Shown here one piece after another: positions 1,540 through 59,600 of a DNA stretch of 64,000 nucleotides. Made by a program: the position numbers and the translations under genes. How positions within the stretch are numbered: position 1 is the first letter of the stretch; every line of letters begins with the position of its first letter. The stretch is from Isurus oxyrinchus (taxonomy: Eukaryota), in NCBI GenBank assembly GCA_026770705.1, contig JANJGN010000034.1:15128001-15192000 (forward strand), read 5' to 3'. Under the pieces are notes generated by a model. The model was not told the origin of the DNA. It searched no databases and was given only the letters and a program-made list of their open reading frames with translations.

Positions 1540-1656
1540 TTATACATTCACATAAACAGGATCATCGGAGAAAACACAGCTTTTGTAAATATCCGAATCT
1601 GTATAAGGATTGACCACGCAGTTAGGTTTCATTTCCAGATACATCTCATCTTTCTT
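1540..1656 (-). CDS. Gene A terminal cytoplasmic exon (KKDEMYLEMKPNCVVNPYTDSDIYKSCVFSDDPVYVNV*)
   Basis: tttctgtttctattacag acceptor; 117 nt to TAA; same length and stop position as the paralog at 47877-47993; ends in Tyr motifs. Confidence 0.82.
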   Translation of the reverse strand, partial: KKDEMYLEMKPNCVVNPYTDSDIYKSCVFSDDPVYVNV

Positions 1657-4600
1657 CTGTAATAGAAACAGAAATGATCAGAGTGACTTTCAGAGTGATC
1701 AGTGTTTAGTATTATTGATCCAAATCGAAAATTCCACCCACATTAGATACATTAGTTATTGATACTGAACGGTGTTTGATTATTGATACTGAACGGGATT
1801 TGATTATTGATACTGAACGTTGTTTGATGATTGATACTGATCGGGGTTTGATTATTGATACTGAACAGTGTTTGATTATTGATACAGAACAGGGTTTGAT
1901 TATTGATACTGAACGGGGTTTGATTATTGATGCTGAATGGCGTTTGATTATTGATGCTGAACGGTGTTTGATTATTGATACTGAATGGGGTTTGATTATC
2001 GATACTGAACAGGGTTTGATTATTGATACTGAACGGGGTTTGATTATTAACACTGAACAGTGTGGGGTTTAATTTTTGATTCTGAATAGGGTTTGATTAT
2101 TGATACTGAACTGGTTTTGATTATTGATACTGGATGGAGTTTGATTATTGATACTGGATGGGGTTTGATTATTGATACTGAACGGGATTTGATTATTGAT
2201 ACTGAATGCGGTTTGATTTTCGATACAGAACAGGATTTGATTGTTGATACTGAACGGGGTTTGATTATTGACACTGAACTGGGTTTGATTATTGATACTG
2301 GATGGGGTTTGCTTATCGATACTGAACACGGTTTGATTATCGATACTGAACAGGGTTTGATTATTGATACTGAACGGGGTTTGATTATTGACACTGAACA
2401 GTGTGGGGTTTAATTTTTGATTTTGAATGGGGTTTGATTATTGATACTGAACTGGGTTTGATTATTGATACTGGATGGGGTTTGATTATTAATACTGAAC
2501 GGTGTTGGATTTGATTATTGATACTGAATGATGTCGAGTTCGATTATTGATACTGAGTGGTGTTGGGTTCAATTATTGGTGAGAGAGTTCCAGATTTGCA
2601 CTCCCCTTTGTGTGAAGAAGTATTTTGACATTATCCATGACCAGTCTCGCTTGAATTCAAAGGTCCTGCCCCCTTTGTTCTGGGCTCCCCACTCACTGGA
2701 AATAGTTTTTATCTTCTCATTGGTCAATTAAGTGAATTCCATTCGTTCCATTACTTACCCAAGACCAGTCCGACTGCTCGCCTGCTGAGTAACTGCCCAC
2801 ACGCTCTGCTTGGACTGAATGACTTCTTCCTGTGCTGCTCCTTCTGTGTATTTAATGAGAAAGGGTTGACATGTCACTCTGAGTCAAATCAGGAATGGAG
2901 GGACACCCCACCTTGAAGGATCTTAGTACTTTGGTATAAGCAAACTATTATCCCTTTGCGTTCTGATGGGCAGTCATGTTTAGAGTGTAAAGCTGGGCAG
3001 TCCTTGATGGAGTTTCTATTCAGTCTCACTTCTGAAGGTGCAGAGGTTCCTCATAACCCTTAGAAAGTGTCAGGGATGGGAGAATGTGTAAGAAGAGAAT
3101 GGAGAGAGTGAATGAAAGGGAGAGCATAAGGGCAGAAAAGAGGGAGTGAATGAGATGGGGAATGAGGAAGAGAAAGAGTGAGGCAGGAGGGGGAGTGTGA
3201 AATCCTAATGCCAGGACCATGGCCATAGTAAATCACATCAAAAACCTTTCTGTGTTCTCACTTGTCAATGCCTTGCTCTTCCATCTGGCAGGAATTATGT
3301 TGGCCATGAGACTGTGTCTACGTGTTATTATATTGTATGGTTATAAGCTTCTTATTTGGTTTGGATAGGAAACAGAGAGTAGGGATAAGAGGGACATTTT
3401 CACGTTGGCAAGCTGTGAATTTTGGAGTGCCACAAGGATCAGTGCTGGGACCTCAGCTATTTACAATCTATATTAATAAATTAGATGAAGAGACAGAGCA
3501 TAATGTATCTAAGTTTTCTGATGATACCGATCTAGGTGGGAATGTAAGCTGTCGGAAGGACACAGAGAGGTTGCAAGGAGATATAGATTGGTTAAATGAG
3601 TGGGCAGTAAGATGGCAGATGGAGTATAATGTGGGCAACTGTATAAGTTGTCACAATGATGTGACTTGTATATCAGTGATAATCATCTCTACTTTCATTG
3701 GCTGATCAAATATATATTGAATGTGCTTTTAAAAAGCAAGCAAAGACACCAATTAAAGATGGCTGCCACAGTCACCTGATGCCTAGTATTACAGGTTGAA
3801 CAGTTTTCTGGAAGGTTCCAATGTGGAATACAATTAAAACATGCCCATAAATTCTGTTATGTAATTCCACACCTACTGAGGTGAAAGACCTCTTTAAAAG
3901 ACTTACTGAAACTGTAATGTACCTGAGATTTGCATTTCTATAAAGCTACCTCTCAAAATATATAGAAAGCCTACTAGGCCAATAACTATGTGGAAAGGTG
4001 TGCTTCCTATCTTATCCAGATGGATATTGGCTTGTTCCGATGTTAATGGCTTAAACATTACAGAATCTAATCACCTCAGCCATGAAACAATAGCCATGGA
4101 CTGTCCAGATATGAGCTAAGCAAATACATTCTGAAATCATTATTGGGAGGAGGTCATTTTACTTGAATAACCATTTTTGAAATTTCTTGTATTAGAACAC
4201 GCAAGCTGCTGAGCACTAGTCTGGAAGAAACTTGCCAATGGGGCAGTAAAACACTCTCTCTCCCCTGCTCTCTCAAGTTCAAGTCCCTATTTCTGTTCTA
4301 GTTTGAAATCCAGTATAGATATAGAGAATTTCCATTGAAAGGAACCTGAGGTGCAAAAATCATTGACTTCAGGAAAAGACAGATTACGTTTTTAAAAAAA
4401 TGACAGAAACAGACTCCAGAAATTGCAGTTTAGATCGGTTTCAACTCCTGAAATCTCAAGAACACCACGGAGAAAAACTTGTCACAGCCACAAATATCAG
4501 CAAAGGATTCATAAACGGGGGACTCTCTACTTTATTTTCCTTTTTGCATTGAACTTTAATTTGATTGGGAAAGTAACTTTCTACCGTTTGACTTGTAATT

Positions 4601-7600
4601 CTGCATGCTGGTGGGTGTGTGTGTGCTATGAAAGTTGAGACACGGGTTTACCTTTTTAAACATTTTTTATATCTTTACCTGCATGGGTTTTTAACTCTTT
4701 GAAAACAAACCCCTTTTTTGTTTCAAGCTCAAGAAAACATGCCAGACTAGTTTCTTTGCAATTAGCACGTAAAAGGTTAAGCACAGACATTGAGTATATA
4801 TCTCGCTAAATTCACAAAAAGAAAATATCCTGTTACTGTCAGGCTTGGAGTGATTGGATAGGGGAGTTAGTCTTACCCTTCCTCCCATGGCCGGAACAAA
4901 GTGAATATTATTTTTAAAGTTTAAAGTGACAATGTTTAAAGAGATTTGGGTGTGCTTGTGCAAGGAACACAGAAAGTTAGCATGCAGGTGCAGCAAGCAA
5001 TTAGGAAGGCAAATGGCATGTTGGCCTTTATTGCAAGGGGATTGGAGTGAGGAATAAAGGAGTCTTACCACAATTGTACAGGACTTTGGCGAGACCACAT
5101 CTGATGTACTGTGTGCAGTTTTGGTCTCCACGTTTAAGACAGGATACACTTGCGTTGGAGGCGGGACAGCAAATATTCACGAAATTAGTCCCTGGCGTGA
5201 GGGGGGTGTCCTATGATGAGAAGCTGAGTAAATTGGGTCTGTCTTCTCTGTAGTTTAGAAGAATGTGAGATGAGCTCTTTGAAACATACACATTTCTGAA
5301 AGGGCTTATTAGGATAGAGGCTGAGAGATTGTTTCTGCTGGTCGGAGAATCTAAAACAGGGGGGCACAGCCTCAGGATAAGGGGCTGATCATTTAGGTCT
5401 GAAATGAGGAGAAATTTCTTCACTCAAAAGATGGTGAATCTTCAGAATTCTCTGTCCCAGAGGGTTGTGGATGCTCCTTCGTTGAATACATTTAAGGCTG
5501 GGATAGGCAGATTTTGGGTCTCTGAGGGAATTAAGGGATACGGGAAGTGGGCGGGACAATGGAGTTGAAGCCCGAGATCAGCCACGATTATAGTGAATGG
5601 CAGAGCAAGCTCGATGGGCTGACTGGTCTACTGCTCTGGTTTCTTGTGTTCTGGCCCTTGCCCTTTGGAAGGTTGGCCCCACCCCCAACCCGTTTTAAGC
5701 ACAAGGATTTTGGAGTGGGGTTGAATCTACTCAGTAAAAGAAGAAAAACTTGCTTTGATATAGCACCTTTCACAACCTCAGGATGTCCCAAAGCACTTTA
5801 CAATCCAGGCTGACACACCCAGTGCCAATACTGAGGGAATACTGAACTGTCGGATGAGACGCTAAAACATGGCCTCCGTCTGCCCTCTCAAAAAGATGTA
5901 AAAGATCTTGTGGATGCTATTAGAAGAAAAGCAAGGGGACTTCTTCCCAGTGTCCTGGGACCAATATTGATCCTTTAAAATCCGGACCTATCCAATGATA
6001 GATTATGTGGCCATTATCATGTTGGTGTTTGTGGGAGCTTGCTGTGCGCAAATTGGCTGCTAGGTTTCCTACATGACAACATTTTAAAAGTTTTTATTCA
6101 TTCATGGAATTGGGGGCATTGCTGGCTAGGCCAGTATTTATTGCCCATCCCTAACTGCCCTTGAGGACTGAGTGTCTTGCTAGGCCATTTTGAAGGATAT
6201 TTAAGAGTCAACCACATTACTGTGGGCCTGGAGTCGCCTGGAGGCCAGGCCGGGTAAGGACAGCAGATTTCCTTCCCTAAGGGACATCAGTGAACCGTAT
6301 GGGTTTTGACGACACTGGTTTCATGCTTACTGTTAGACTTTTAGTTCCAGATTTTTTATTGAATTCAAATTCACCGCCTGCCATGGTGGGATTCAAACCT
6401 GGGTCCCTAGAACTTTACGCTTGGTCTCTGGATTACTAGTCCAGTGTAATTAATTCACTGTAACTTGTGTTGCGACGTTATGAGCTTGTGAAAGGTGCTA
6501 CAGAAATGCCAGTTTTCTTGAAGGCGGGAAGTTTGAGGTAAGAGATGATTGAGATAACTAACCAACCAATTAAACCTTTGCACTTACTTTCTCACACACT
6601 TGAAGATGAAGAATCCACTCAGTCCAACACTCAAACAGATTCCAGCTCCAAGCAATCCTGCTTTCCATTCGTTGGAGGCTGCAGCTGTAAAAATGATCAA
6701 TGAAAGACTCCAGTACAGTTTTAGAATGATTCTCAAGTGTTCATTTTGAACTTGTGAACGACACAATCTGACAGCTAATTGAACAACTTCAGGCTAAGGA
6801 GCAGCTGGATTAATTCAGGTGGCAAGAGAAACTCATGGATGTATCTTTGTGTGTGCGTAGGGATGTGTTTCTGTCTCTGCTTCTTGTGTGTGTGTATGTC
6901 TGTGTGTCTGTGTGCATGTCTGTGTGCGTCTGTGTGTGTGTGTATGTCCGTTTGTGTGGTCTTTGTGCATCTTTGTTTCTGTCTGTCTGTGTAAGTTGTC
7001 ACGACTCACTGGGGATAGTGCGCTGTAATATCGAGTCCCACTGTTCCCCAAGCCGTGACAAATGTGAAAAGTTTGACCAAACCTCCAGATTGCCCCAATT
7101 CTACCTAACTGTTTAATTTAGGATAACAGAATACAAACACCAGGTTTGTAAACTTAATAAGTAAATAACTGTTTATTGAACAAACTGCTATTAACCAGTG
7201 GCACAAGAAAAAAAATATGAACTGCTAAGTTCTAACGCTATAACTTAAACTCTTCCCCTTCTTAAATCCTTATATACGCACATATAAGACACATGGGACA
7301 CACAAAAATATGGATTTTAAGGTTGGGATAAAACAATTCAGGAGTACAGAATTCAATGGGTTGATTTTGATCGATGTCTTCCAAATTCCTTTCAGTTCTT
7401 GTTGGGAACACAAGGTGGTCTCCCAGCACTTTCAGTATTTAGTTCACTGGTTGAGCACTTGTTTTTCAATGTCTCTAACAGTGATTTTCCCCTTTGTCTA
7501 TTCACAAGGGTTTTCAGAGAGAGATCAAGTTATAGAAATATGAGGAAAAAAAGCCAGCTAGCTATTAATGTGAAATTACTGGAATCTCCCACACACAGGA

Positions 7601-10600
7601 GAAATAGGTTTTAGATCTTGTTCCTTTCAGGCTAGGAGCTATTCAGCTGCACTGTCCTCATACAAAACCTGGTCAGGAGCTAATTAAAATGCTGTTGTCA
7701 GGCAGCTCCCTTGATCCAGGACTCCTTTCCAGCACCATCCTGTCTTTCATGGCACACTCTGTTCCAGGACTGCAACATTGTATATATCTCTCACCCTGCC
7801 CCAGTGGACAGGCTTTTCAAACGGCAGCCATTGAAGCTTTAAACCCACAGTCCAACAATAATAAAAAGATATGTTCTTTACAACAGTCCAACGGAATTAA
7901 AAAAAATAACTTACATACAAAGTGCGTATGGCTCTGAGCGTGTGTTTGTGTGCCGGTGTGGGTCAGTACTGAGGGAGTGCTGCACTGTTGGAAAGTCAGT
8001 ATTGTGGCAGCGCTGCACTGTTGGAGGTTCAGTACTGAGGGACTGCTGCACTGTCGGAGGATCAGGACTGAGGGAGTGCTGCACTGTCGGAGGATCAGTA
8101 CTGAGGGAACGATGCATTGTTGGAGGGTCAGGACTGAGGCAGCGCTGCATTGTCGGAGGGTCATACTGAGGGAGCGCTGCATTGTTGGAGCGTCAGTACT
8201 GAGGGAGGGCTGAACTGTCAGAGGGTCAGTACCGAGGGAGTGCTGCACTGTCGGAGGGTCAGTACTGAGGGAGTGGTGCACTCTTCAGAGTGCCGTCTTT
8301 CACATATAACATTAAAATGTGGCACCGACTGCCTTCTGAAGGTAAACAAAAGATCACATGATGCTATTCAAAGCAGAGGTGTTGCTGGTGTCCTGCCCTA
8401 TATTAATTAGTAAATGATATGGCCTGGTCCACACTAGATTGTGCACAGCAAGATGGCAGATAAAGACAACCTAGACTTTTACGGCTAATGTAGAGTGAAG
8501 GACGTATGTACTGAGAAAGAAGAGTGTCTGTACTTACATTGCACAGTTAGTGTGAGGGTCTGCTCCGACGAAACAGATGGATATCTCAATCTGCAGCTGA
8601 GAGTTTGTCCATGGTGTTTGAGTGATGGGATCAGGGTCAGAACAGAAGTATGGATCAGAGTGACACCATGCTGAGTTACAGTGTTTGACACTGATCCAGG
8701 TACGTCAGTGGGAGTGTCCCAGGTTAAGACAGGTGCTGCTGTTCCATTGCACGTTGTGTTGAAGGTGCAGCTTACATCCACACGCTTTCCTGCAATAATT
8801 TCAGCAGGGAATATTGTGGGTTTATCTGTGAAATCTAACAGACAGAGAATGGATCCTTTTAGAGAAATATAACGTGAAGCATCAGTTCAAATAGAAATCA
8901 CAGAGAAAGAACTTTTACAAGGAGGTTCTCAGAAGTGAAAGATTACAACGATCTGGAAAGAATTGCCTATTTTCTGATTAGCGAAATCCTTGAATTGGCC
9001 ATATTGGCATGAAGGTGGAGGGGCAACTCACAACTTGGAGGGAACTCGCTCATTACTGTCTCAGAAATCATTTCCAAATTTAAATTCTATACTGTCTCTG
9101 GCAGGACAGAAAAATTTGAAACAATCACTGAACCATCAGCCAGTCATATATCTCATTGCTTTTTATGAGAGCTTGCTGTGCACCAGTTGGCAGCTGTGTT
9201 TTTCTACATAGCAAGTTATTGCACTTCAACAATTTGTTCATTGACTTTGATTCACTTTGGGATGCCCTCAGGTGGGGAAAGGTGCTACAGAAATGCGAGA
9301 CTTTCTTTATTCAATATGTAAGACTTTTAAACGGGGCTAGAGAGATCTTTGGGATTGATTAGATAATTCTATGTGATTGTGTATCTCTACGTAAGAGAAT
9401 ATATTTTGTTATTTTTATATTTGGTGGCGAGTCTGTCACTGAGCTTAATATACATTCACCCAGAGTCCATTGAATTGACAATAATGGGGTGAGGGTGAAG
9501 GAGCAGCTTACACCTTGGACAGAACTGGCTCATCACTTCCTCAAAAATGAGTTCCAAAGTTCAAATAAACCTATCCCCGTTCAAAACGATCCTTGAACCT
9601 GCACCTAAAACAGATGATCAATTATTTATCTCATTGCTGTTTGTGGGAGCTTGCTGTGCACAAATCAGTTGCTGCATCTCCTACATAAGAACTGTCACTA
9701 CATTTCTAAAGTACTTCATTATCTGTGAAGGGATTTGGATTGTCCGGAGGAGGTGATAGGTGCTATAGAAATGTGAATTTTTCTTTTTCCGATTTGTAAG
9801 ACTTTTAAACAGGGTTAAGGAGATCGATGTGAGTGGATAACCTGATAACATTGATGGACACAGTCAATACATTTAATCACTGATATTAAAGTGACTGTTA
9901 GCGGTTGCTTTAGGACTGAACTGGAAGCTATCACCAGGTTATTGAGAATCAGACAGTGTGTTATAATAAGCTGTGTTTTGTGTTAATATGTAAACGTCAC
10001 AGTTTGTGTTATTTCCCATTGAGTGTTGCATGTGAATTGTTGAGTAATTATAACACAGCACTTACCAGAAACTTTAAGCTGGGTTACAGCAGAGTAGTTG
10101 GAGCTTTTATTGTTGCCAGATCTTATTCTAAAATAATAAGGCCCTGCATCTTCCCGTGTGATGTTGTTTATAATCAGGGAACAGTCACCATCTTTCAGGT
10201 CTCCAGACAGCCGGGTCCGATGGCGGAACCGTGGTAACTCGTGATTGTGATCCTTGGAGTGAAAGGCTACAGATGACCTTCCTCCTTTTTTATTAAACCA
10301 GACTCCATCTCGCGATTGGTTTTTCAAATGTGATGAATAACTGTAATGACATGGAATCTGTACACACGAACCTTCCTGCGCTGTCACCTCTCGTAGAGTG
10401 TTGATTTTCTGCTCACGTGACAGTCCAACTAGGGAGAAAAATATCAATATTTAACACTGGAACTCACCAGGGTTACATCAACAGCATCTCCCTCCCCTTT
10501 GACCTCTCCTAGGGCAGCAATGTGCTGGAATGCCCATCACCTCCTGCTCAGACCCCTTTCTCCCTCAGACATGTACCACCTTTAAAGCATCATCACTGAG

Positions 10601-13600: not shown

Positions 13601-14521
13601 TCTGCCGTCTTTATCCAGTTTGGAGTACACGTGACTCCAGACCTACAACAATGTGGTTGACTCTTAACTGCCCCTCTGAAATGGCTGAGCAACCTACAGA
13701 ATGGAAATCAAAACAATGAGAGACAGGAAGTCTGTATTTTCGACACCTTCAGAAACTGACTGCTTTGCTGCCTTTTTAATTTTGTTTGGTTGCTATGATG
13801 ATAGGGCTGATCTATGTGTCTATTCTAAGCTCTGTTGCCTTGCAGTAATGAGACTTCTCAAAAAAATTTTTATGTCTGAGCTCCTCCAATTCTGACCTCT
13901 TGCCCATCCTCAAGGTTTAGGGAGGAAATTCCAGAGCTCAGGGTCCAGGCAGGTGAAGGCACGACTGCCAATGGTGGAGCGATGGAAATCGGAGATGTAC
14001 GTGAGGCTGGGTTAGAGGGACATAGAGGCCACAGAGAGTCATAGAGCCTGGAGGAAGTTACAGAGATAGGGAGGGTTGTAGGGGCTGGAGGAGGTTACAG
14101 AGATAGGGTTGTAAGGGCTGGAGGAGATTACAGGGATAGGGAGGGTTATAGGGTCTGGAGGAGGTTACAGAGATAGGGAATGTTGTAGGGGCTGGATGAG
14201 GTTACAGAGAAAGGGAGGGTTTGAGGGGCTGGAGGAAGTGACAGAGATAGGGAGGGTTGTAGGGCTTGAGAGGGTTACAGATATCATGGAGGGAATTGCA
14301 CACAAAGACCTGAATTTTAATTTTGAGGTATTCTCAGACATGGAGTCAGTGAGTGAATTGGACTTGGTATGAGTTTGTAAACTGGGAATCGATTCAGCAG
14401 TGACCCAATCAGAGCTCAATAAGAATTATCTTTTCCAAAGATTATTAACCATAAACCTGTCCAAGCTGACGATGATATTACCTTGGAGAAGTGACAGGAG
14501 GAAGTAAGATTTCCCGATCAT
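1540..14521 (-). CDS. Siglec-like receptor gene A (whole model): complement(join(14482..14521,10066..10428,8538..8834,6588..6684,2759..2843,1540..1656)), 999 nt, 332 aa
   Basis: All six exons have canonical AG/GT sites and compatible phases (1,1,1,2,0) and join into one open frame: signal peptide, V-set, C2-set, TM, Tyr-containing tail. The V domain has Siglec hallmarks (CVQIPC, DCSL, YYFR with Arg in place of the F-strand Cys). Confidence 0.85.
1757..2572. repeat. 24-bp minisatellite (TTGATTATTGATACTGAACGGGGT)n in the last intron of gene A
   Basis: About 30 visible tandem units; source of the LIIDTE.. repeat ORFs. Confidence 0.95.
2759..2843 (-). CDS. Gene A cytoplasmic exon 1 (KRSSTGRSHSVQAERVGSYSAGEQSDWSW)
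   Basis: ccctttctcattaaatacacag acceptor, GG|gtaagt donor; its 85 nt exactly bridge phase 2 (TM exon) to phase 0 (last exon); paralog at the equivalent position in gene B. Confidence 0.78.
3363..5650 (+). mobile_element. CR1 LINE 3' part, interrupted by a solo LTR
   Basis: GVPQGSVLGPQLF, FSDDT, LYRTLARPHLMYCVQFW motifs; CR1-type 3' UTR. Confidence 0.85.
3649..4898. mobile_element. Solo LTR-like element
   Basis: TGT...ACA termini flanked by AAGT (3645-3648 and 4899-4902); splits a CR1. Confidence 0.6.
5742..6080 (+). mobile_element. Deu-domain SINE (SacSINE1/AmnSINE1-like) remnant
   Basis: tactgagggaatactg..ggatgagac..ctgccctctc..gtaaaagatc..tgtgggagcttgctgtgcgcaaattggctgc; paralogous copy at 49780-50110. 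Confidence 0.6.
6092..6445 (-). mobile_element. tRNA-derived SINE
   Basis: Reverse complement of the SINE family at 13385/32066; LINE-like tail. Confidence 0.65.
6588..6684 (-). CDS. Gene A transmembrane exon ([33 protein letters not shown])
   Basis: ttttacag acceptor, AA|gtaagt donor, 97 nt, hydrophobic segment followed by basic stop-transfer residues; paralog at 50259-50355. Confidence 0.88.
6838..6992. repeat. Degenerate (GT)n microsatellite
   Basis: Visible GT runs; paralog at 50525-50870. Confidence 0.9.
6997..7919. mobile_element. Solo LTR-like element
   Basis: TG...CA termini with AAGT on both sides (6993-6996, 7920-7923); absent from the gene B paralogous intron. Confidence 0.6.
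7960..8290. repeat. 33-bp minisatellite (CAGTACTGAGGGAGTGCTGCACTGTCGGAGGGT)n
   Basis: About 10 tandem units followed by Deu-SINE-like sequence. Confidence 0.92.
8538..8834 (-). CDS. Gene A Ig C2-set exon
   Basis: Overlaps ORF 8485..8781; ctgttag acceptor, T|gtaagt donor, 297 nt; DKPTI...VSC...TC...LTW...[16 protein letters not shown], typical Siglec domain 2 including the extra Cys for the V-C2 disulfide. Confidence 0.92.
10066..10428 (-). CDS. Gene A Siglec-type Ig V-set exon
   Basis: Within ORF 9983..10447; ttttctccctag acceptor, TG|gtaagt donor, 363 nt; GSCVQIPC...W...GDCSLII...DAGPYYFR. Confidence 0.92.
10825..11240 (+). mobile_element. Penelope-like element (family 2) 3' remnant with decayed hammerhead motif (11173-11208)
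   Basis: Translates HLRMLEASYVDTQGPVLCRQKE (GIY-YIG C-terminus); ttgtc-CTGATGG-gtgcaagat-GAAA-agctt-tgaca. Confidence 0.6.
11903..12663. mobile_element. Solo LTR-like insertion in gene A intron 1
   Basis: (c)GTTATGA...TCATGACA inverted termini; empty site in paralog C near 36390. Confidence 0.65.
13385..13700 (+). mobile_element. tRNA-derived SINE
   Basis: A-box TGGCATAGTGG and B-box GGTTTGAATCC followed by a body shared with 32066 and 59635. Confidence 0.7.
14030..14290. repeat. ~34-bp tandem repeat (GTAGGGGCTGGAGGAGGTTACAGAGATAGGGAGG)n
   Basis: Tandem units within an L2-like tail; paralogs at 44020-44390 and 60985-61285. Confidence 0.88.
14482..14521 (-). CDS. Gene A leader exon ([13 protein letters not shown], phase 1)
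   Basis: acaATG start, hydrophobic stretch, CAAG|gtaata donor; near-identical copies at 44604-44643 and 61516-61555; upstream acceptor tttttctttcatag ending at 14562. Confidence 0.8.
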
Positions 14522-16260: not shown

Positions 16261-16672
16261 TGGATATTTTATTTGAAGAAGCAGAAGAGGGTGATCATTG
16301 GAAATGTGTGATTGTCATTGATGGTGAGTGTCTTAAATGTCTGACTATCATTAATAATGGTCAACCCCAATGATTGTGGCAATACAGTGCAGAAAAGTGG
16401 ACAGTTTATCAAAGATCGATCATAGGCAAATAGGACTGGACAATACCATTCAACTGCACTTTGGATTTTATAATATGAGCACTTTAATTTTCCAAATATA
16501 ATATGGCCCTTAAAAAAATACCTGGGGTTAGGGAAAGTATTATACACGGGAACGAATCAAAATGGAGAGTTTTACAAAAAAACAAAAAACTGCGGATGCT
16601 GGAAATCCAAAACAAAAACAGAATTACCTGGAAAAACTCAGCAGGTCTGGCAGCATCGGCGGAGAAGAAAAG

Positions 16673-16711
16673 AGTTGACGTTTCGAGTCCTCATGACTCT
16701 TCGACAGAACT
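16673..16711 (-). ncRNA. Minimal type I hammerhead ribozyme-like motif
   Basis: agtt-CUGUCGA-a-GAGUC-augag-GACUC-GAAA-cGUC-aacu. Confidence 0.6.
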
Positions 16712-19035: not shown

Positions 19036-19074
19036 AGTTCTGTCGAAGGGTCATGAGAACTCGAAACGTCAACT
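19036..19074 (+). ncRNA. Minimal type I hammerhead ribozyme-like motif
   Basis: Same motif, one mismatch in stem II. Confidence 0.55.
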
Positions 19075-25948: not shown

Positions 25949-25950
25949 TC

Positions 25951-27583: not shown

Positions 27584-27654
27584 GTGCGGAACTCTTCTTC
27601 CGCCGTCTTCGTCTCCGGGCTCACTTCTTTGGGCAGGAGTCCTCTCCCCGTTCA

Positions 27655-29658: not shown

Positions 29659-30053
29659 CCTTCCTCCTCCATCCCCACCCCCCTTCTGTTTCTTTCCCCT
29701 TCCTTTTTTTTCCCCAATAAATTATATAGATTTTTCTTTTTTCCTCCTATTTCCATTATTTTTAAATATTTTTAAATCTTTTAAGCTCCCCCCACCCCCA
29801 CTAGAGCTATACCTTGAGTGCCCTACCATCCATTCTTAATTAGCACATTCGTTTAGATAATATCACCAACTTCGACACCTATGTGTTCTTTTGTTCTGCT
29901 GTCTGTGACATCTTTTGATGATCTGCTTCTATCACTGCTTTTGCCTACAACCACACCACCCCCCTCCACTTCTCTCCCCACACCCAACTGGCAACCCCCC
30001 CACACCCACCACCTTAAACCAGCTTATATTTCAACCCTTCCTGGGATTCACCT

Positions 30054-30092
30054 AGTTCTGTCGAAGGGTCATGAGGACTCGAAACGTCAACT
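30054..30092 (+). ncRNA. Minimal type I hammerhead ribozyme-like motif
   Basis: Same motif as 26008-26046. Confidence 0.6.
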
Positions 30093-47876: not shown

Positions 47877-47993
47877 TTATACATTCCCATACACAGACTC
47901 CTTCTCAAACTCGCAGGTTTCGTAAAGATCATCATCTGTATCAGGATTGATTCCACGGTTAGATTTCATTTCCAAATCCTTCTCATCTTTCTT
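47877..47993 (-). CDS. Gene B terminal cytoplasmic exon ([38 protein letters not shown])
   Basis: 117 nt, same acceptor and TAA position as in gene A. Confidence 0.82.
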   Translation of the reverse strand, partial: KKDEKDLEMKSNRGINPDTDDDLYETCEFEKESVYGNV

Positions 47994-50552
47994 CTGTAAT
48001 AGAAACAGAAATGATCAGATTGACAATCAAATTATTGATCCAAATCGAAAATTCTAATCACAATAGATGTATGAATTATTGATACTGAACGGATTTTGGT
48101 TATTGATACTGAATGGGGTTTGATTATTGATACAGGACAGGGTTTGATTATTGATACTGAACGGGATTTGATTATTGATACTGAACAGGATTTGATTATT
48201 GATACTGAACAGGATTTGATTATTGATACTGAGCAAGGTTTGATTATTGATACTGAACAGGGTTTGATTATTGCTACTGAACTGGGTTTGATTATTGATA
48301 CTGAACGGGGTTTGATTATTGATACTGAATTGGGTTTGATTATTGATTCTGAACGGGGTTTGAATATTGATACTGAACTTTTTTGGGTTTGATTATTGAT
48401 ACTGAATGGAGTTTGATTATTGATAATGAACTGGGTTTGATTATTGATACTGATCTTATTTGGGTTTGATTATTGATACTGAATGGTGTTGGGTTTGATT
48501 ATTGATACTGAGCAGGGTTTGATTATTGAGACTGAAAAGGGTTTGATTATTGATACTGAACGGTGTTTGATTATTGATACTGAACAGGGTTTGATTATTG
48601 ATACTGAACTGGGTTTGATTATTGATACTGAGCAGGGTTTGATTGTTGATACTGAACTTTGTTGGGTTTGATTATTGATACTGAATGGGATTTGATTATT
48701 GATACTGAACTGGGTTCGATTATTGATACTGAACGGTGTTTGATTGTTGATACTGAACTTTGTTGGGTTTGATTATTGATACTGAACTGGGTTTGATTAT
48801 TGATACTGAACTGGGTTTTATTGTTGATACTGAACTTTGTTGGGTTTGATTATTGATACTGAACTGGGTTTGATTATTGATACTGAACTTTGAGGGTTTT
48901 AATTATTGCTGGAGAAAGTTCCAGATTTCCACTCCCCTTTGTTGGAAGAAGTGCTTCTTGATATCACCCCTGAGAGGCCTGTCTCAAATTATAATGTTCT
49001 GGTCCCTTGTCCTGTCTCCTCACTCCATAGGTCGTGGAAATGAATTCCAATCGTTCCGATACTTACCCCAGTCCTGTCCGACTGCTCGCCTGGGGAGTTA
49101 CTGCCGAAGCGCTCTACTTGGGCTGAATGACCTCTTCCTGTGCTGCTCTCTCTGTATATTTAATTAGAACGCGTTGATGGATCATTGAGAGTCAAATCAG
49201 GATTGGGGGAACAATGAGAAAACACTCCCTTGTTGAATTTAACAACCTTTGTTTTATTTGCTCAATTCTGTTCATTTAACAGTTCATTCTTCATATCCTG
49301 ACATGCTGTTGTGGTTCCAGTATATATCTGGTCAATCGCTGAGGGAGTTTCTACTCGATCTTATTCCCGAGGCTGCAATGGATTTTCTGAGGGAGCAGAA
49401 AATGTCAGTGATCGGATCACGTACAGGAAAGGGTGGAAGAGAGTGGATGAGAGGGAGAGATGAAAGGAAGAAAGGAAGAGTGAATGAGACAGGGAAAAGT
49501 GAAGAGATAGAGTAAGACAGGAGGATAAGCGTGAAATCCTAATGCCAGGATCACAACCGGAATGAATCATGTCAAGTGCCACTGTTGTTCTATTTTGGCA
49601 ATGTCTTGCTTGGTTCTCTGGCAGGAATTGTGTTGACAGTGTGACTGTGTGTCTACATGTTACTGTACTACACATTTATAGGCATCTTATTTGGTTCTGG
49701 CTCACGATCTCTGAGCGATTGGCCCCACGCCCAACCCAGGACTTGGGGTGGGTTTTGAATCTACTCCGGAAAGGAAGAAAAACCTGCATTTATGTAGCGC
49801 TTTTCATAACCTCAGGACATCCCGAAGCATTTCACAATGTGGGTCAATGCACCCAGTGCCAACACTGAGGGAGTACTGCAATGTTGGACGAGACATTAAA
49901 CCAAGGCCCTGTCTGCCTTCTCAGGTAGATGTAAAAGATCCCGTGGACACTATTGGGAGAAGAGCACAGGGAATTCTCCCGAGTTTCTTTTGGTCAACAT
50001 ATATCCCTCAAAATCCCAACATGACCTAGGACAGATTATCTGGCCGTTATCATGTTGCTGTTTGTGGGAGCTTGCTGTGCTCAGATCGGCTACCCCGTTT
50101 CCTACATTACAAGGCCAGAAAAGTATTTCATTCACTTTAAATTGTTTTGGGACATCGTGAGCTTGTGAGAGGTGCTATAGAAATGCAAGGTTCCTCTTGA
50201 AGAAGAGAAGTTTGAGCTGAGGATGTTGAAGAACAACCAATTAAACCTTGGCACTTACTTCCTCACACACTTGAAGATAAAAAATGCATTCAGTCTAGCA
50301 CTCAAAGTGATTCCAGCTCCAAGCAATCCTGCTTTCCATTCATTGGAGGCTGCAGCTGTAGAAAGAGCCAATGAATGACTCCGGTACAGTTTTACAATTG
50401 TTCTCAGATGTGCACGTAATCATTCTGAACTTGTGATGACTCAATCTGACTGACAGTAAAGTCCAATTGATCAACTTCGGTCTTAGGAGTAGCCAGGTTA
50501 ATAGAGGTGGCAAGAGAAACTCATGGGTGTGTGTTCTTGCTGTTTAGGAGAG

Positions 50553-50638: not shown

Positions 50639-53600
50639 TTTGTCTACATCTGTGTTAGCATGTGTGTGAGTTTGTGTGTGAGTGGGTTTGTGTGTGTTTC
50701 CATGTGTGTGTGAATGGGTTTGTGTGTGTCTCCATGTGTGTGTGAGTGGGTTTGTGTGTGTCTCCGTGTGTGTGCTCATGTATCTTCTATGTCTGTCTAT
50801 GTGTGTGCGTATGTGTGTGAAAGATTCTGTGTGTCTCTATGCGCATCTGTATTTCTGTGTATTTGTGTGTGGACATGTAACTGCCAGGGACGCCTCTACC
50901 ACAAAGACCAGCCTGTTACTATCACCAACATAGTTGCAGCAAAAGTGTCTTTGTAAATCCAACTTCCTTGTCGATGCCAATTTGCTCATATCTAAAGAAT
51001 TTTTGAAGTTTTTATACACTCAGATTCAACAGTGATGGTTATGAACCCCTTCACTGCTCCATGTTCATTCTCTGCCACACACTTATAGCCTCCAGTGTCC
51101 CTGGATGTAACGCAAGGAATCACCAACCACAACTCATTTTTGGAACTTGTTCTGTTCATTGGGACATTAAGATGTCGCCATGTCAGGTTAGAAGCTGGGA
51201 AGCTCTCGACAGAGCAGATTATCACTGCAGAATTCCCCTCAACTATATTGATCGATGAAGTGTCAATCATATCAAGAGAAGTAATTGAGAGATTCTGTGA
51301 TGCGTCTAAAAACAAATAAAGATCAGTTAATTTACATTGACTGAAGCACATTGAGACACCCTGAGAATGTGAAAGGTGTGATATCAATGTAGGTTCCTTC
51401 ACCACAAAGCACATAATCCATGCAGACACTTCAGTTCAGTACTGAGGGAGTGCTGCACTGTTGGAGGGTCAGTACTGAGGGAGTGCTGCGCTGTTAGAGG
51501 GTCAGTACTGAGGAAGTGCAGCATTGTTGGAGCGTCAGTACAGAGAGAGCGCTGCACTGTAGGAGGGTCAGTGCACTGGAAGTCCTGCACAGTTCTAAGG
51601 TCAGTACTGAGGTATCGCTGCACTGCTGGAGAATCAGCACTGCGGGAGTGCTGCACTGTCAGAGGGCCAGTACTGAGGGAGTGCTGCTTTGTTAGAGGGT
51701 CAGTCATTCATGTACATGTTGCACAGCAGCGATGCAAGCATGCTTCCCTGAGGCAGACCATTCTTCTGAATATGCCACTTGCTGCACTTCCCACCTAGTT
51801 CAACATAGAACCGGCGATTCTGAAGCATACTCTCTTAAGTGAATATCTTTTGTCATCTCTAGGCTACTGCAGAGGAGATGTCTATGGTTCACTGTATCAT
51901 ATGCTGCTGACAGGTCTACAAAAACAGCACCTGTTACCATTCCTTGCTCAAAACCATCTTCGATATGTTGTGTGAGGTTGAGCAGTTGGCTTGTTGTTGA
52001 TTTGCCGGGGCGGAAACCTGCTTGCTCTGGAATGATCTTCTCATCTACAGTTGGTGCTATCCTTTTGAGTATCAGGCGTTCAAACACCTTATTGGTGTGG
52101 CAAAGCAGTGGGATTGGCCGAAAACTCTTAGGATCTGAGGGATCTTTTCCGGGCTTTAATAGTGTGATTACATATGCCTTCTGCCAAATATTAGGTAGAT
52201 TGTGTGTTGCCAGACAGTGGCTGAACAATTGTAGGAGCCATTTCTTTGCTTGCTGTCCAAAATGCTATATCTGCTCCATTGCTATGTTGTCAAGACCAAT
52301 TGCTTTCCTGTAGTTTAGACTAGATATTCCCGTTTCCAGCTCTTCTATGGAGAATGGTCCAGTGAAGCCAGGGTCAACGGTGTACTTCTTCCTATCCAGT
52401 TGTGCTCTTGGTTGTTTCTTGTTGATTTTTCCATTTAGGAGCAACTAGTGTGCAACTTGGTTTGCAGACACACTTGGATGTTGGGCAGCTTTCTTGGGAT
52501 CGCCTCCAAGTTTGCGTATGAGAGACCATGCCTTCTTGCTGTTTTTTTGTAAGATCTGTTGTCTCTATCAAGGTGTCCCAGGTGTTTTGACACTCTTGAG
52601 AGATACTTAACATCATCCTCTCATCGGTAGATATTGTTTCCTCTGAGAAGGGGTCAGATTCAAACATTGAGACATACTCCCAGTAGAGTTCAGCATTCTC
52701 CTTGGTGAGACCAGAGATGTAGTGTGCTCTACAACCTTGGGGGATCTTCTTTCTGGCTGTTTTCTGGACAGCTTTTGCAAACAGGTTGTAGTGCTCAGGT
52801 AGTGGTTTAATGTTTAACCTTACGGTCAAGTGCTCGTATGAGCCCGTTCCAATTGGCCTTCTTGTAGTTGAAGCACCTTTTGAATGGTACAATGGTTGGT
52901 AACACTGCTGCATTTACCTGGATACCAATAGGACAGTGTTGTGTCTGTCGTATTGGGTCTGTGACAAGCTTCTTGCAGAGGCCAGCGATGTTGTTGCTGA
53001 CAATGGCAAGGTCTGGTTTATAACTACACTTCCAGGGGGCACTGTGGAAGGAGGCTGGCAATTTAGGATCATGGATGAGACTAAGCTGGTTAGCGTCCAT
53101 CTATTCTTCAACTGCTTCTCCATTGCTGTTAGACTCCATGTACCCCCATTGGGTACTGTGGCTATTAAAGTCTCCAATGATGATCTGTAGTTTACTATGC
53201 AGATTGGTTACAGGGTTAGAGAAGTTGAAATCTGTGCCAGGTGGCTTGTACACTGAGGTCACTACTACTTTGCTCAGCTCTACGGTTAGAATTTCGATGT
53301 TGTCCTTCTCTGTTCTAGAAGTGGCTTCTACAACTGAACCAGCTCTAACAAATACAGCACTGCCATATTGTCAATGAGGTCTTTCAATAACCAGGAACAT
53401 TCCTGGTATTTTTGGGCGGTTGTTCTCACTTCCTCTGTGTGTCTCCTGCAGGCAGAGGACATCACACTGCAACTTATTGCATAATGTAGCGAGGAGTTTT
53501 GTTTAGCTACAGAGAACCCTTCAACGTTAGCAGATGTAACAGTCAATGCCGGTCTTGAAAAAGACCTGTGTTTCTGACATCAACGACTTCCGTCTTCAGG

Positions 53601-56600
53601 CATGATGTTGGTACTTGATCAAATGGACACGAATGACCAACCTTTCGATGGTGTCACATGCCATTTTATATATGCTGATGACTTCTGTGTCACTGCCCAA
53701 AGCACTGATTTTAACACCGTGGAGAAAACCCTTTCTGAGGCCTTGGAGGGACTTATATCCTACTATGAAGAAAACCACCTTCGCGCAAACTCATCGAAGA
53801 CGCAAGTTTGTGCATTCCTCCTCAGAAACCGTGAAGCCAAACGCCAGCTTAAAGTAACCTGGTGTGGAGCAACACTGATGCATTGCGAGCACCCTATCTA
53901 CTTAGGAGTCACCCTTGACAGATGCCTCACCTTCAAGAGCCACATCGAAAAGACAAAGGCAAAAGTGAGCGCATGAACCAACATCCTGACTAAGCTCATT
54001 AACACAAAATGGGGAGCAAGCCTGAAAACAATGCGAACCAGTGCACTTGCTCTTTGCTATTCCACTGCCGAATATGCCTGCACTGCATGGGAAAGATCTA
54101 CTCATGCTAAGAAGATGGACGCTGTTCTGAATGCACACTGCCAACTTATCACAGGTTGTTTAAAACCAACAAACACCAACAGCTTATATATCCTGGCGGG
54201 TATCACTCCCCTTGATATAAGAAGAATGGTTGCCAGCCGGAAAGACCGACTCCGTCAAACATCAGGTGAGAGGCACCCTCTACATGGTCATACACCTACA
54301 CCCAGCTGCCTAAAGTCAAGGAAGACCTTCATGAACAGTGTTGTTCCATGACAATCAACCCCATTTGAAGCCCGCATCGCCTTGTGGAAAGACCGGCTCG
54401 CCAGTCTCGAACAACCCCTACAGGATGAAAGCCTTCCCCCAGGAGCTAATTGCAACTGGGCAACCTGGAAGTGCCTTAACAGACTTAGGACTGGTGTAGG
54501 TCTTCAAAGGTGTCACTAAACAAATGGGGATATACAACCAGCCCGACAACTTTTGAAAGTGGAACTGAGTCACAGACTATGCAACATCTCCTGCAATGCC
54601 TATCGCTAGAGTAACCCTGCACTGTTGCAGATCTAGCTGAATTCAACAACAAGGCACATGCTGGGCCATGCATAGACTGTCCGTGGACACGATAAGAAGA
54701 AGAGGGTCAGTACTGAGGGAGTGTTGCGCTTTCGGAGGGACAGTACTGAGGGAGTGCTGTGCTGTCGGAGGGTCAGTACTGAGGGAGCACTGCACTGTCG
54801 GAGGGGCACTATTGAGGGAGTGCTGCTCTGTTGGAAGTGATGTTTCTCATGTAAGCTGTTAAGCCAAGGATCCAACTCATCTCTCAACTGGATGTAAATG
54901 ATCCCATGTTGCTATTCAGTGGAAAGATCTCTCTGGTTAAATATTATGAATAAAAAAACATGACCTGGTTCTCACCGTATTGTTGTTTGTGGAATCTTGC
55001 TGTGCACAAGAATGAAGGATGTCTGTACTTACATTGCACAGTTAGTACGAGGGTCCGCTCCGATGAAACAGATGCATATCTCACTCTGCAGCTGAGAGTG
55101 TGTCCGTGGTGTTTGAGTGATGGGATCAGGGTCAGAACAGAAGTATAGGTCAGAGTGACACCATACTGAGTTACAGTGTTTGAGACTGATCCAGGTATGT
55201 CAGTGGGAGTGTCCCAGGTTAAGACAGGTGCTGCTGTTCCATTGCACGTTGTGTTGAAGGTGCAGCTTACATCCACACGCTTTCCTGCAATAATTTCAGC
55301 AGGGAATATCGTGGGTTTATCTGTGAAATCTAACACACAAAGAATGGATCCTTTTAGAGAAATATAATGTGAAGCATCAGTTCAAATAGAAATCACAGTC
55401 CCACAAGAGAAAGCACTTTTTTAATGATGATGTCAGAACTGAGATTAAATCCAATTCAGAAATACTTTCCTATTTTCTGACTTAGCGGAGGGTCTGTCAC
55501 TCAGCTTAATACACTTTCACTCCGAGACCCTTGATTTGACGAGCGATGTGAGGGCGGAAGAGCAGCTCACAGTTCGGGGAGAACTGGCCCCTCACTTTCT
55601 CAGAAACCTTTTCCAAAGTTAAATTGCAGACTGTCCACAGCAGGCCAGAAAAAGTTTGAAACAACCTTTCAAACAGATGATCAGGTTATTGATCACTTTG
55701 CTGCATGTTGGAGTTTCCTCTGCATAAATTAGCTGTTGTTACTCCTCCATTGCAACTGTCACTACACTTCAAGAATTACTTCACTAACTTTCGAAGCTCT
55801 TTGGGTCGTCCTGAGTTTGTGAAAGGCACTGTCTGTGGGAGCTTGCTGTGCACAAATTGGCTAATGTGTTTCCAACATTACAGCAGTAACCACGATGCAG
55901 AACTTACATCATTGGCTGTAACACAATTTGGGACATCCAGAGGTTTTGAAACGCGCTATAGAAATGCAAGTGTTTTGTCTTTCCTATTTTCAAACTTGGT
56001 GGGGAATCTGTCACTGAGCTGAATACACTTTCACTCCCAGACCCTTGACTTGACAACACTGGGGTGTGGGTGATGGAGCAGCCCACAGCTCATGGAATCC
56101 TGGCTCATCATTCTCTCAGAGATCTGAGTCACTGATCCCATTGCTCTCTGTGGGAGCTTCCTGTGCACAAACTCACTGCCACGTTAGAACAGTGACTACA
56201 AATCAGGAAGTATTTCATTGGCTGTGATGGGATTTGGATTGTCCAGAGTTGGTGAAAGGCGCTTTAGAAATGTGAGTCTTTCTTTTGTTAATACGGAAGA
56301 CTTTTAAGCAGAATTAGAGAGATTGATGGGAATGGATAACATTGATGGACACAGTCAATACATTTAATCATTGATATTAAAGTGAGTAATAGAGGTTGCT
56401 TTAGGACTGAACTGGAAGCTATCACCAGGTTATTGAGAATCAGACAGTGTGTTATAATAAGCTGTGTTTTGTGTTAATACGTAAACGTCACAGTTTGTGT
56501 TATTTCCCATTGAGTGTTGAATGTGAATTATTGAGTAATTGAACCCAAAGGGAAAAGATAAAAAAACTTAAACTTATATTTTGAAAACGGAAATTAGAAC

Positions 56601-59600
56601 AGAAAATGCTGGAAAAACTCAGAAGTTCTGGCAGCATCTGTGGAGAGAGAAACAGAGTTAACATTTCAAGTCCATATGACTCTTCTTCTGCTTCAGAGCA
56701 GAACCCACTGGCTTTCCCAACATTTCCTGTTTTAATTTCAGATTTCCAGCATCTGCAGTATTTTGCTTTTAAAGGCAGAGATTGGGCCTCGGAGTTTGGG
56801 AACTACAGTTCCCATCAGGCCCCGGGGGTGTCTGCACATGCGCCGATCATTGTTTTTCACCATCTCTGGCCTCTGTGCATGTGCTGAAGCCGCAGATTGG
56901 CCTCACGTGCGCAGTTGGCGCGTTGTACCATCTACAGGCCAATAAACGGTCCTGCACATGCGCCCAGTCAGTTTATTTTGTTTTTCCCAGCTGGAAACTG
57001 TTCCTGCATGCCTGCGCAGAAGGGAAAAACCAAGGAAGGAAATGAAACAGCGGGAGTAGAGGGTCAGGCGACCTAGAAGAGGAATGCCATTCCGCAGAAG
57101 AGGCAGAACACGGGAGCCGCAGGGGGGCAGGTCCCAATGAGAAGAAAAAAGTCGAGTGGGACAGAAAGAATCCCCACGAAGACAATCGAGTTAGGGGGTG
57201 AGGACAGGAATCTGAAACAAATCCTGTTAAGTGGAATTGAAAATAAGGAGCGGAAAAGAGTCTCCTAATTAAAGAGACCGAGTTGCGGGGAGCAGACTTG
57301 GAATGAGGTGGGATTAAGAAAAGCCAGAAGACCTGAGGAGGTAGCCGAAGGTCGGTGACTCCTTATTATGGGCTTTCGGAGCAGTGGTGTTCTGTTTGGC
57401 ACAGCCAAATAGGGGTGAGCGTGTGCATGGAAGACGCAGCTTAAGTGCACATAGAGATCCAGGGGAAGGGAACCTTGGAAAGAGAGGTTGAAGCCCTAGA
57501 AGTGTTTCCTTCTTGGAGACGCCTGCGAGAAAGTGTCGTTTGGGAGAGAACGCCAAAGTGAGTTCTTCGAACTTGGAGATTGGAAGCCCTCGTGATAAAG
57601 ACAGGTTTTCAGTGAGACTGGATGGCTCACAGTGTGATGAGGGTCTGGGGGGTTGATGAGAAAGCCAGAGAAATTTGGTTAAATTTTGGTTAAAGGTGGA
57701 CCACAGTTCACCTATTAGTTTACATGGGCTGTATACTTACTGTGAACATTAGAGTATAGGATAGATTTTATAGCTTGTGTTATCTTTCCCAATATGTATA
57801 TATCTGTAAATGTATTCTTGGGGTGAAGGAGTAGTGTAATCTAATTCATCTTTTCTTATTTCATAAGTGTTTTATTCTATTGGTAAAGGTTCATTAGCAG
57901 ACTCCTGTGACTGTTCTATAGCCACTCTCCACATTTCTAAACAAAAAATAAAAGTTAGGGCCTATCAAGCCAGGCTCCACCTTGCGATCTGACTTGTCCA
58001 TCAGTAACATCAGCTGGGATCGTAATACAGCACTTACCAGAAACGTGAAGCTGGGTTGCAGGATAGTAGCTGTAACTATTGCTGCTGTCAAATTCTATTC
58101 TGAAATAATAAGGTCCTACATCTTCCCGTGTGATGTTGTTTATAATCAGGGAACAGTCGCTATCTTTCAGGTCTCCAGACAGCCGGGTTGGATGGCGGAA
58201 CCGTGGTAACTCGTGACTGTGATCCTTGGAGTGAAAGACTATGGGAGCCCAGGGAATCTGTTCCTCTTTATTAAACCAGACTCCAACTCGCGGTTGGTTT
58301 TCCAACTCTGATGGATAACTGTAATGACATGGAATCTGTACACACGAACCTTCCTGCGCTGCCACTTCTCGTGGAATGTCGCATTTCCACTCTTGTGACA
58401 TTCCAACTGGGGAGAGAAAAATCAATATTTAACACTGGACCCTCGACAAATCACTCTGGATCCTCATTGTCTCAGGAATCTCTTTGGATCCTCTTTGGCT
58501 AAGGAATCGCTTTGGGGATTCTGATGCAGCATTGTAGACTGACTTGTCCCCAAGCTCTGCACTGACCCTACTCCAGCAGATACTGTGAAACACACTAACA
58601 AAGCGCCTCTAGCCTGAGCTCTACATATGTCGGAGGTGCGACTATGTTGGGTTCACAAGTTTCACAGATGATCTCACTGTATTTTTATTAGAACTGAACT
58701 GGAACCAACATGGAACCCCTCCTACTCTTCCCCAGTATTCATGATCTCTGCAGCTGGGCTGAAGAGTTGCTGATCACAATGTACACGAACAATTTGAAAT
58801 GAAAAACACAATTTCTAAATTTGAGGAGGACTGCAACAAATTGAAGGAGGATGGTAATAAACTTGTAGAATGGGCAAATGATTGGCAAATATAGTTGAAC
58901 ACAGATAAATGTGAGTTCGTATATTTTGGTAGGAAGCATAAGGAGGCAATTTATTACTTGGAAGATGCAAGACTAGGTCGGGTAGAGAAACGAAAGGATC
59001 TTGGAGTATAAATGTATCAACCACTAAAAGCTGCACCACAGATTAGCAAGGCCAAAAGAGAAGTGAACCAAGCGCTGGATTTTCTTTCTGAAGGAATAGA
59101 ATTGAAAAGTGGGGAAGTTATGTTAAACTTGTCTTGAACCTTGGTTAGACCACACTTAGGCCAGAATTTTTCTGTCGGCGAGTTGGGGATGGGGCCTGCT
59201 CTCTGACACGGAAATGACGTGGGATGACGTCAGGAGGAACCCCCAATGTCATCCCGCCCCATTTAAATATTCAGGAAGGCAGGCAGACAACAAAATCAGC
59301 TGTCTGCCTGCCGACTTGTCAATGGCCAATTGAGGCCATTAACAGGATAATTAACCCAATTAAAGGCCCTGCCCGTCCAATCTTAAGGCTGGTGGGCAGG
59401 CCAGGAGCACTTCCCTCTGGGTAAGGCCCGCCCACTCAAAATGGCGGCGGGGCCCGTTTCAGCGGTGGAGTTCGGCTGCCCGCCCATGCCGAGCAGGTGG
59501 GACCCACCCGCCCATCAAGGGCTAAATTCTGCCCTTAGAGTACTGCGTACAGCTCTAAAAGGCAGGGCCACAGGTAAAAAGGTGATTAAATCAGCAAACC

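Follow-up and report, generated by a model that had tools for sequence, protein, structure and literature searches.

The window (the whole 64,000-nucleotide stretch of Isurus oxyrinchus DNA analyzed here) carries on its minus strand two genes, A and B, that encode Siglec-like receptors, and part of a third, C (Table 1). Gene A has six exons, in the order leader, V-set, C2-set, transmembrane, first cytoplasmic and terminal exon. Exons were modeled by mapping the related protein model P0008 onto the window and then checking the splice sites. All introns of A are GT-AG (phases 1-1-1-2-0), and the predicted protein has 332 amino acids without the stop. A contig from run X3 covers positions 1400-1657 and then continues with 30 letters identical to window positions 2760-2789, i.e., across the last splice predicted for A. 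This run is presumed RNA and comes from a relative (3 differences, 18 gap letters). No recorded RNA run was found among the listed holders of this stretch; run X2 (see below) is likewise presumed RNA. The last splice alone was seen in reads, and the splice joining the transmembrane and cytoplasmic exons is based on GT-AG phases and model P0008. The preliminary description had presupposed that the terminal exon is used in the frame of its motif, and this holds: the exon joins an intact six-exon reading frame at phase 0.

Gene B encodes 334 amino acids in an intact six-exon frame if a third Ig exon is left out. This exon is probably skipped, as CT stands at the expected GT donor. The Arg and Asn gained in the membrane segment of B may reflect decay or a gained adaptor coupling. 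Gene C consists of a leader and a V exon, and lacks its own C2, transmembrane and tail exons. Possible explanations are a gene fragment, a secreted V domain or a front end that A uses as an alternative; in model P0012, an A-type tail follows several V domains. No further family exons were identified in the 20 kb to the left or the 30 kb to the right of the window. Nearly all leader exons, irrespective of tail type, have an orphan copy of the first cytoplasmic exon ~0.5-1.2 kb upstream.

The V exon of B was compared with solved structures in the PDB; the best 18 of 27 matches were Siglecs, with MAG first (E 1.4e-16). The V domains of A, B and C match PF07686 and PF24518. The essential F-strand Arg is present in B when aligned with MAG, and A has Arg at the same position. 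The order of a V and then a C2-set domain (PF08205), a single transmembrane segment and a cytoplasmic tail, in an open six-exon frame, is that of Siglecs. Given the retained Arg, sialylated glycans are probable V-domain ligands. Database names are mixed, and the best structure match is MAG rather than a CD33-related Siglec. Pfam contains no family for the tail.

Table 1. Features of the window and the related four-gene repeat elsewhere in the genome
Feature	Position	Strand	Remarks
Gene A terminal coding exon	1540..1656	-	38 aa + stop, 117 nt, phase 0, AG acceptor; carries the two-tyrosine module
Motif A	1587-1540	-	six-frame translation; quoted peptide A spans 1596-1540
Gene A proximal tyrosine site YKSC	1576..1587	-	family consensus Y-A/E-N-C; Asn lost in A
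Gene A distal site YVNV-stop	1540..1554	-	YxN, Grb2-type; Pro at Y-2
Gene A extra YLEM (YxxM pattern)	1630..1641	-	A-specific; kept in models P0008 and P0012
24-bp minisatellite, last intron of A	1756-2528		31.6 copies
Gene A first cytoplasmic exon	2759..2843	-	85 nt, phase 2 to 0
Gene A transmembrane exon	6588..6684	-	hydrophobic stretch without charged residue
Gene A C2-set Ig exon	8538..8834	-	PF08205
Gene A Siglec-type V-set exon	10066..10428	-	F-strand Arg present
Gene A leader exon (coding part)	14482..14521	-	mapped exon
Orphan first-cytoplasmic-exon copies	15661-15554, 45301-45212, 62766-62719	-	also in L077-L091
Near-identical repeat copies between C and A	16578-19140, 25950-30187		92-95%
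Gene C V exon	36066-35704	-	
Gene C leader exon	44643-44604	-	
Gene B terminal coding exon	47877..47993	-	117 nt, AG acceptor, phase 0; YETC-x7-YGNV-stop
Motif B	47924-47877	-	six-frame translation; quoted peptide B spans 47933-47877
24-bp minisatellite, last intron of B	~48075-48908		
Gene B first cytoplasmic exon	49067..49151	-	mapped exon
Gene B transmembrane exon	50259..50355	-	Arg and Asn within hydrophobic stretch
Gene B third Ig exon	51024..51305	-	CT at expected GT donor
Broken LINE-like reverse transcriptase pieces, B intron	51803-53579	-	
Gene B C2-set exon	55033..55329	-	DNA 95% identical to A
Gene B V-set exon	58038..58406	-	F-strand Arg present; Siglecs, including MAG, are the best solved-structure matches
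Gene B leader exon (coding part)	61516..61555	-	mapped exon
Four-gene Siglec-like cassette, ~65-80 kb repeat	G000:C52:140001-220000 and 650001-720000 (L077-L091)		

The tail motif in genes A and B

Six-frame translation of the window gave exactly two matches to Y-x-x-C-x(5-9)-Y-x-N, both on the minus strand and each followed by Val and a stop. The stricter pattern Y..C.{6,8}Y.N[VLI] followed by a stop also occurs twice, versus 0 times in 100 mononucleotide shuffles. The two-tyrosine tail motif of genes A and B is real, and both tail peptides quoted in the preliminary description are present as written. The D-x-x-Y element ascribed to both tails fails in A, where Ser occupies Y-3, and is not conserved across species. 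The Asp residues common to A and B are at Y-2 and Y-4; also common are Phe at Y1+5 and Val at Y2-1 (Y1 and Y2 are the proximal and distal tyrosines). Nine of the 19 quoted residues are identical.

The tail coding sequences of A and B share 88 of 117 nucleotides (75%), the five flanking intron stretches are 69-87% identical, and the dN/dS of the tails is 0.53 (38 codons). Because the identity of the tail coding sequence resembles that of the flanking introns, the match between A and B alone does not go beyond what descent explains. For the same reason, the divergence between A and B was rejected as proof of selection. Evidence of conservation beyond descent comes from the relatives of these genes.

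The tail of A is 37/38 and 34/38 identical to the A-type tails of two other species. A further Tyr of the A-type tail, in N-P-Y, is kept along with YLEM in P0008 and P0012. In A, YVNV and the upstream YLEM may each provide one of the Grb2 and PI3K sites, which are united in CD28-type motifs.

Copies of the family in this genome

At least 138 matches to the tail exon occur in the I. oxyrinchus genome, among 139 candidates scored. Of the 71 that were read, all but A and B are near-identical cluster copies (69; consensus D-L-Y-A-N-C-x-F-x-x-D-S-V-Y-G-N-L-stop). A and B, the outliers, lost the first Asn and have a terminal Val. Y2 and its Asn are present in 71/71 copies, Y1 and its Asn in 69/71 and the Cys in 70/71. 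Variant codons in the 69 cluster copies comprise 23 non-synonymous and 5 synonymous changes, which is near the neutral ratio, and copy number was rejected as proof of selection. Neither of the two cluster genes with this tail that were examined looked intact: one has no detectable leader, V and C2 exons, and the other has a stop in the first cytoplasmic exon. Probably many of the copies are broken, and some may be haplotype duplicates (41 are on one contig). Given the near-neutral variation and the absence of intact genes among the two examined, copy number is little evidence of function.

A sister tail with canonical ITIM and ITSM motifs has at least 150 matches on the same contigs (150 scored of 408 candidates). 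On the three largest contigs, the nearest upstream tail, among the sister matches listed, is a same-strand sister tail for 40 of 78 tails. The mean for 2000 label shuffles with strand kept is 29.5 (6 were as high). Two stretches of 70 and 80 kb share a four-gene order: an Arg-anchored short tail, an ITSM-only tail, an ITIM+ITSM tail and then the tandem-YxN tail. The tandem-YxN tail is a third tail class beside the ITIM/ITSM tails and the Arg-anchored short tails. Sister ITIM tails often carry Asn at +2 as well, so this residue is not unique to the tandem-YxN class.

The ITIM+ITSM gene of the cassette has up to eight extra Ig exons. A variant of the sister tail (P0006, P0013, P0015, P0019; L079, L086) has Pro at the ITIM +3 position (YANP) and retains the ITSM-like site alone; with Pro at this position, it also offers a bare YxN.

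Conservation across sharks and rays

Among the best 120 of 152 matches to the C2 exon of A, 119 are named shark or ray proteins and one is unnamed. Twenty models were picked by likeness of their transmembrane and first cytoplasmic exons, ignoring the tail. Fifteen end in the motif and five continue into unrelated sequence; no homolog with a decayed motif was found between 22 and 52 bits. Two profile searches added three and nine tails. After removal of isoform duplicates, and of two models in which a longer chain encloses the exon, 27 distinct tails from 18 species remained; they span galeomorph and squalomorph sharks as well as batoids. Four chance hits (P0126-P0129, E 3.5-7.3, two with a GAPDH label) were dropped before all counts. 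A set of 18 tails was chosen by pattern and does not by itself demonstrate invariance, a bias for which the tail-blind set and the second profile search correct.

The consensus of the 27 tails is Y-x-N-C-x7-Y-x-N-(V/I/L)-stop. Y1 is present in 27/27, and Asn at Y1+2 in 25/27, the exceptions being two A-type tails. Y1+3 is Cys in 24/27 and otherwise Tyr, Phe or Trp (one each). Y2 is present in 26/27 (model P0130 ends before it), always with Asn at +2 (26/26, also in A and B). The distance between tyrosines is 11 in 25/26 and 10 in one (spacers of 7 and 6). The best-kept residue across species is the Asn at +2 of both tyrosines. The preliminary description, based on A and B, had specified no Asn after the first tyrosine; the family has one there. 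It had also treated a terminal NV as defining, which does not hold for the family: the last residue is Leu in 69/71 of the genome copies read and varies in 26 tails from other species (V12, I8, L3, T1, K1, M1). The broader proposition that the motif recurs in paralogs and in other species is borne out, and the tail class is conserved across sharks and rays in the protein models compared. Against this background, A and B are, by comparison with their relatives, derived members of the family that lost the first Asn and kept only the distal YxN.

An upstream exon duplicate adds a third site, Y-E-N/S-C, in eight protein models of seven species. Among the 29 cluster loci, 13 carry it in the 1.5 kb examined; A and B are without it. 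The contig from run X2 joins the duplicated exon to the terminal exon, in our reading of the contig's loose end.

Outside elasmobranchs, the first profile search found no tail among the 7992 candidates sharing most words. A profile search over 1.84 billion representatives, of limited reach as the profile took in the transmembrane region, gave 13 matches, of which the nine new ones are all named as shark or ray proteins.

In a tree of C2 domains (46 rows) tail type is unclustered, with 14 label changes versus a mean of 14.8 after shuffling (205 of 500 as low). At the level of sequence, tail types are mixed over shared ectodomains, which is the pattern of paired receptors. The proposal that the nearest C2 relative is an ITIM-tailed paralog of the same species was rejected, being true in 3/14 alone; it is therefore at order level, rather than at species level, that ectodomains are seen to be shared. 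A second ectodomain class with the same tail (P0001, P0002, P0130, P0131, P0138) has Tyr in place of the essential Arg of the V domain.

Assignment of the tail to a signaling motif

The YxN core, as in ITT-like motifs, is present at the distal site of all 26 tails and of A and B, and at the proximal site of 25/27, A and B excepted. ITT proper (DYxN) is not represented: Y1-1 is I12, L11, V3 or T1, and Y2-1 is V, I, L or M. Grb2-family SH2 domains bind pYxN, and paired LAT sites are bound cooperatively (PMC6669380). In ITT motifs, the conserved part that carries the function is the YxN core (PMC4263166; PMC10058298). Grb2 binds pYVNV with high affinity, and binding benefits from a hydrophobic +3 residue (PMC9279350). 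Since Asn+2 is the most tightly held position and the positions that define ITAM, ITIM and ITSM motifs are not kept, we judge with moderate confidence that the tail presents tandem ITT-like YxN sites that dock Grb2-family adaptors. The possible Grb2 binding suggested in the preliminary description is consistent with the distal YxN, which fits the Grb2-family motif, and the module is better described as tandem YxN, with Asn+2 at both tyrosines. The third site added by the duplicated exon, the canonical ITIM+ITSM tails that the sister genes already supply and the lack of sorting of C2 domains by tail type also favor the Grb2 assignment.

Under tandem Grb2-family docking, binding of probably sialylated glycans by the V domain, in which the Arg is kept, would cluster the receptors. 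Src- or Syk-family kinases would then phosphorylate the tail tyrosines; acidic residues and Ile, Leu or Val at -1 suit Src-family kinases. Grb2, Grap or Gads could bind pY-x-N, with two or three sites providing avidity, and the Cys would most likely serve as the hydrophobic +3 residue. In the manner of ITT-like motifs, the receptor might then amplify or tune signaling by activating receptors engaged together with it, and not be a conventional on or off switch.

Several observations run against Grb2 docking. A and B lack the first Asn yet keep Tyr and Cys, and the A form occurs in two other species; Y1 may therefore have a reader other than Grb2. The fixed spacing of 11 would not be needed by independent Grb2 sites, and Cys is kept more strictly than a merely hydrophobic +3 would require. 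In B and in 70/71 genome copies, the ITIM consensus is matched at the distal site as well, a fit that the preliminary description does not mention.

The spacing raises an ITAM variant, with Cys in place of Leu/Ile at the first +3 and both phosphotyrosines binding the tandem SH2 domains of Syk/ZAP-70. The ITAM consensus is D/ExxYxxL/Ix6-8YxxL/I (PMC5112662). Its spacer of 6-8 occurs in 26/26 tails, D/E is at Y1-3 in 16/27, and +3 is always hydrophobic at Y1 and V, I, L or M in 24/26 at Y2. YxN motifs also occur in the ITAM-like tails of Xenopus Ceacam proteins (PMC5112662). However, 0/18 tails fit the consensus, Leu/Ile is at Y1+3 in 0/27, and the motif lies within one exon, unlike the intron-split ITAMs of Ceacam. 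By our estimate there are too few indels for the fixed spacing to be significant, and Arg-anchored short-tailed members could couple to ITAM adaptors. We consider this reading unlikely. Of the earlier phrase that the module is ITAM-spaced and chemically different, both the spacing and the non-ITAM chemistry stand; its definition by NV and DxxY is not supported.

A degenerate ITIM at the distal tyrosine that recruits SHP-1/SHP-2 would make the receptor inhibitory, with the proximal site a decayed copy of the sister ITIM; we think this unlikely. The ITIM consensus is [IVLS]xYxx[LV] (PMC7226832; PMC10906256), and S-V-Y-G-N-L/V fits it in B and the 70/71 genome copies noted above. Across species the strict fit falls to 7/26 (11 with Ile allowed), as Y2-2 is S11, A9, P4, V1 or L1, and the distal site of A is not an ITIM because it has Pro there. 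The proximal site resembles the sister ITIM (D-L-Y-A-N-C-x-F versus L-L-Y-A-N-I-N-F), but Y1-2 is D18, N7, A1 or C1, with S/I/V/L in 0/27. DNA homology between the tail exon and the sister ITIM/ITSM exon was rejected, as similarity was not above shuffles (39-59 of 300 as high), so a common origin with the sister ITIM has motif likeness alone behind it. The ITSM pattern TxYxx[VI] is found in 0/26 at the distal site, and Thr at Y1-2 in 0/27.

The YxxC pattern, present in A, B and 24/27 tails, could instead be a STAT3 docking site, leaving YxN as a separate Grb2 site. YxxC recruits STAT3 in G-CSFR signaling and was proposed to do so for TLT2 (PMC7516513). A and B keep Tyr and Cys despite losing Asn, and the Cys is kept in the duplicated exon. 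We regard STAT3 docking as very unlikely: where Tyr, Phe or Trp replaces Cys the Asn is kept in all three tails, and the YxxQ variant occurs in 0/27.

Least likely of all is a regulatory role for the Cys, whose thiol would gate the tyrosines through palmitoylation or redox changes, or a tail that is mainly a YxxPhi endocytosis signal. The frequency of the Cys, including in the duplicated exon, fits the former, and the C-terminal tyrosines of FcuR, including an ITT-like one, drive endocytosis (PMC10058298). The Cys replacements are all aromatic, and the regulatory Cys of the preliminary description is not upheld. Endocytosis motifs need no Asn at +2, and neither reading explains both conserved Asn residues.

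It is conceivable, though we doubt it, that the tail is a bivalent, ITAM-spaced module, with two YxN and Cys at the first +3, read as one unit. The tandem SH2 domains of Syk/ZAP-70 and a Grb2-family dimer would be its candidate readers, alone or one after the other. Such a module would form a third Siglec signaling class, retained since sharks and rays shared an ancestor, mixed onto at least two ectodomain classes, and amplified more than 100 times with inhibitory and activating partners as a four-gene cassette.

Comparison with known systems

No description of the tail or of the expansion was found within the literature searched, a scope that most subscription papers and genome-paper supplements lie outside. 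The accessible text of the whale shark genome paper contains a single mention of Siglecs (PMC8455134), and that of the CEA paper contains nothing on a tandem-YxN tail (PMC4079198). The tail class is apparently undescribed, and its building block is a motif of a known type. The usual division of Siglecs is between inhibitory receptors with ITIMs and activating receptors coupled to adaptors; a conserved tandem-YxN tail would give the family a third output, and this in the oldest lineage still living that has adaptive immunity. A teleost study reports four Siglecs as the regular number in fish, against which the scale of the shark family stands out (PMC7226832). The natural variants, i.e., no first Asn (A, B), Tyr, Phe or Trp for Cys, and a third site, form a ready-made mutational series.

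ITT and ITT-like motifs (mIgG/mIgE tails, FcuR DYINV, CD28, DAP10) resemble the shark tail in that acidic residues precede a YxN core close to the C-terminus (PMC4263166, PMC10058298), and predicted Grb2 docking and signal amplification would be common to both. The shark tail differs in its two or three tandem sites at fixed spacing with Cys at the first +3, in its hydrophobic residue instead of Asp at -1, and in its position on a Siglec-like lectin. LAT also carries several YxN on one tail (PMC6669380), and the YVNV of A is a motif listed for LAT, SHC and BCR (PMC9279350). However, LAT is an adaptor without an ectodomain and its sites are ~20-35 residues apart, whereas the shark sites are 11 apart on a ligand-binding receptor.

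CD22 (Siglec-2) is a Siglec with a Grb2-recruiting tail, in its case by way of a single tyrosine (mouse Y828; PMC3342095). Its Grb2 site lies among three ITIMs, unlike the shark tail, which has no conserved ITIM or ITSM. Xenopus Ceacam genes form a paired-receptor cluster with non-inhibitory, ITAM-like tails and conserved YxN, as in the shark (PMC5112662), but their motifs are of the YxxL type and split by phase 0 introns, whereas the shark tail is one exon with Cys at +3. Siglec-5/14 and -11/16 place similar ectodomains on ITIM tails or on a charged membrane residue, a pairing that is seen here as well (PMC6288428). Two signaling classes are described for mammalian paired Siglecs in that review, to which the shark family would add a third, the tandem-YxN tail, at far higher copy number.
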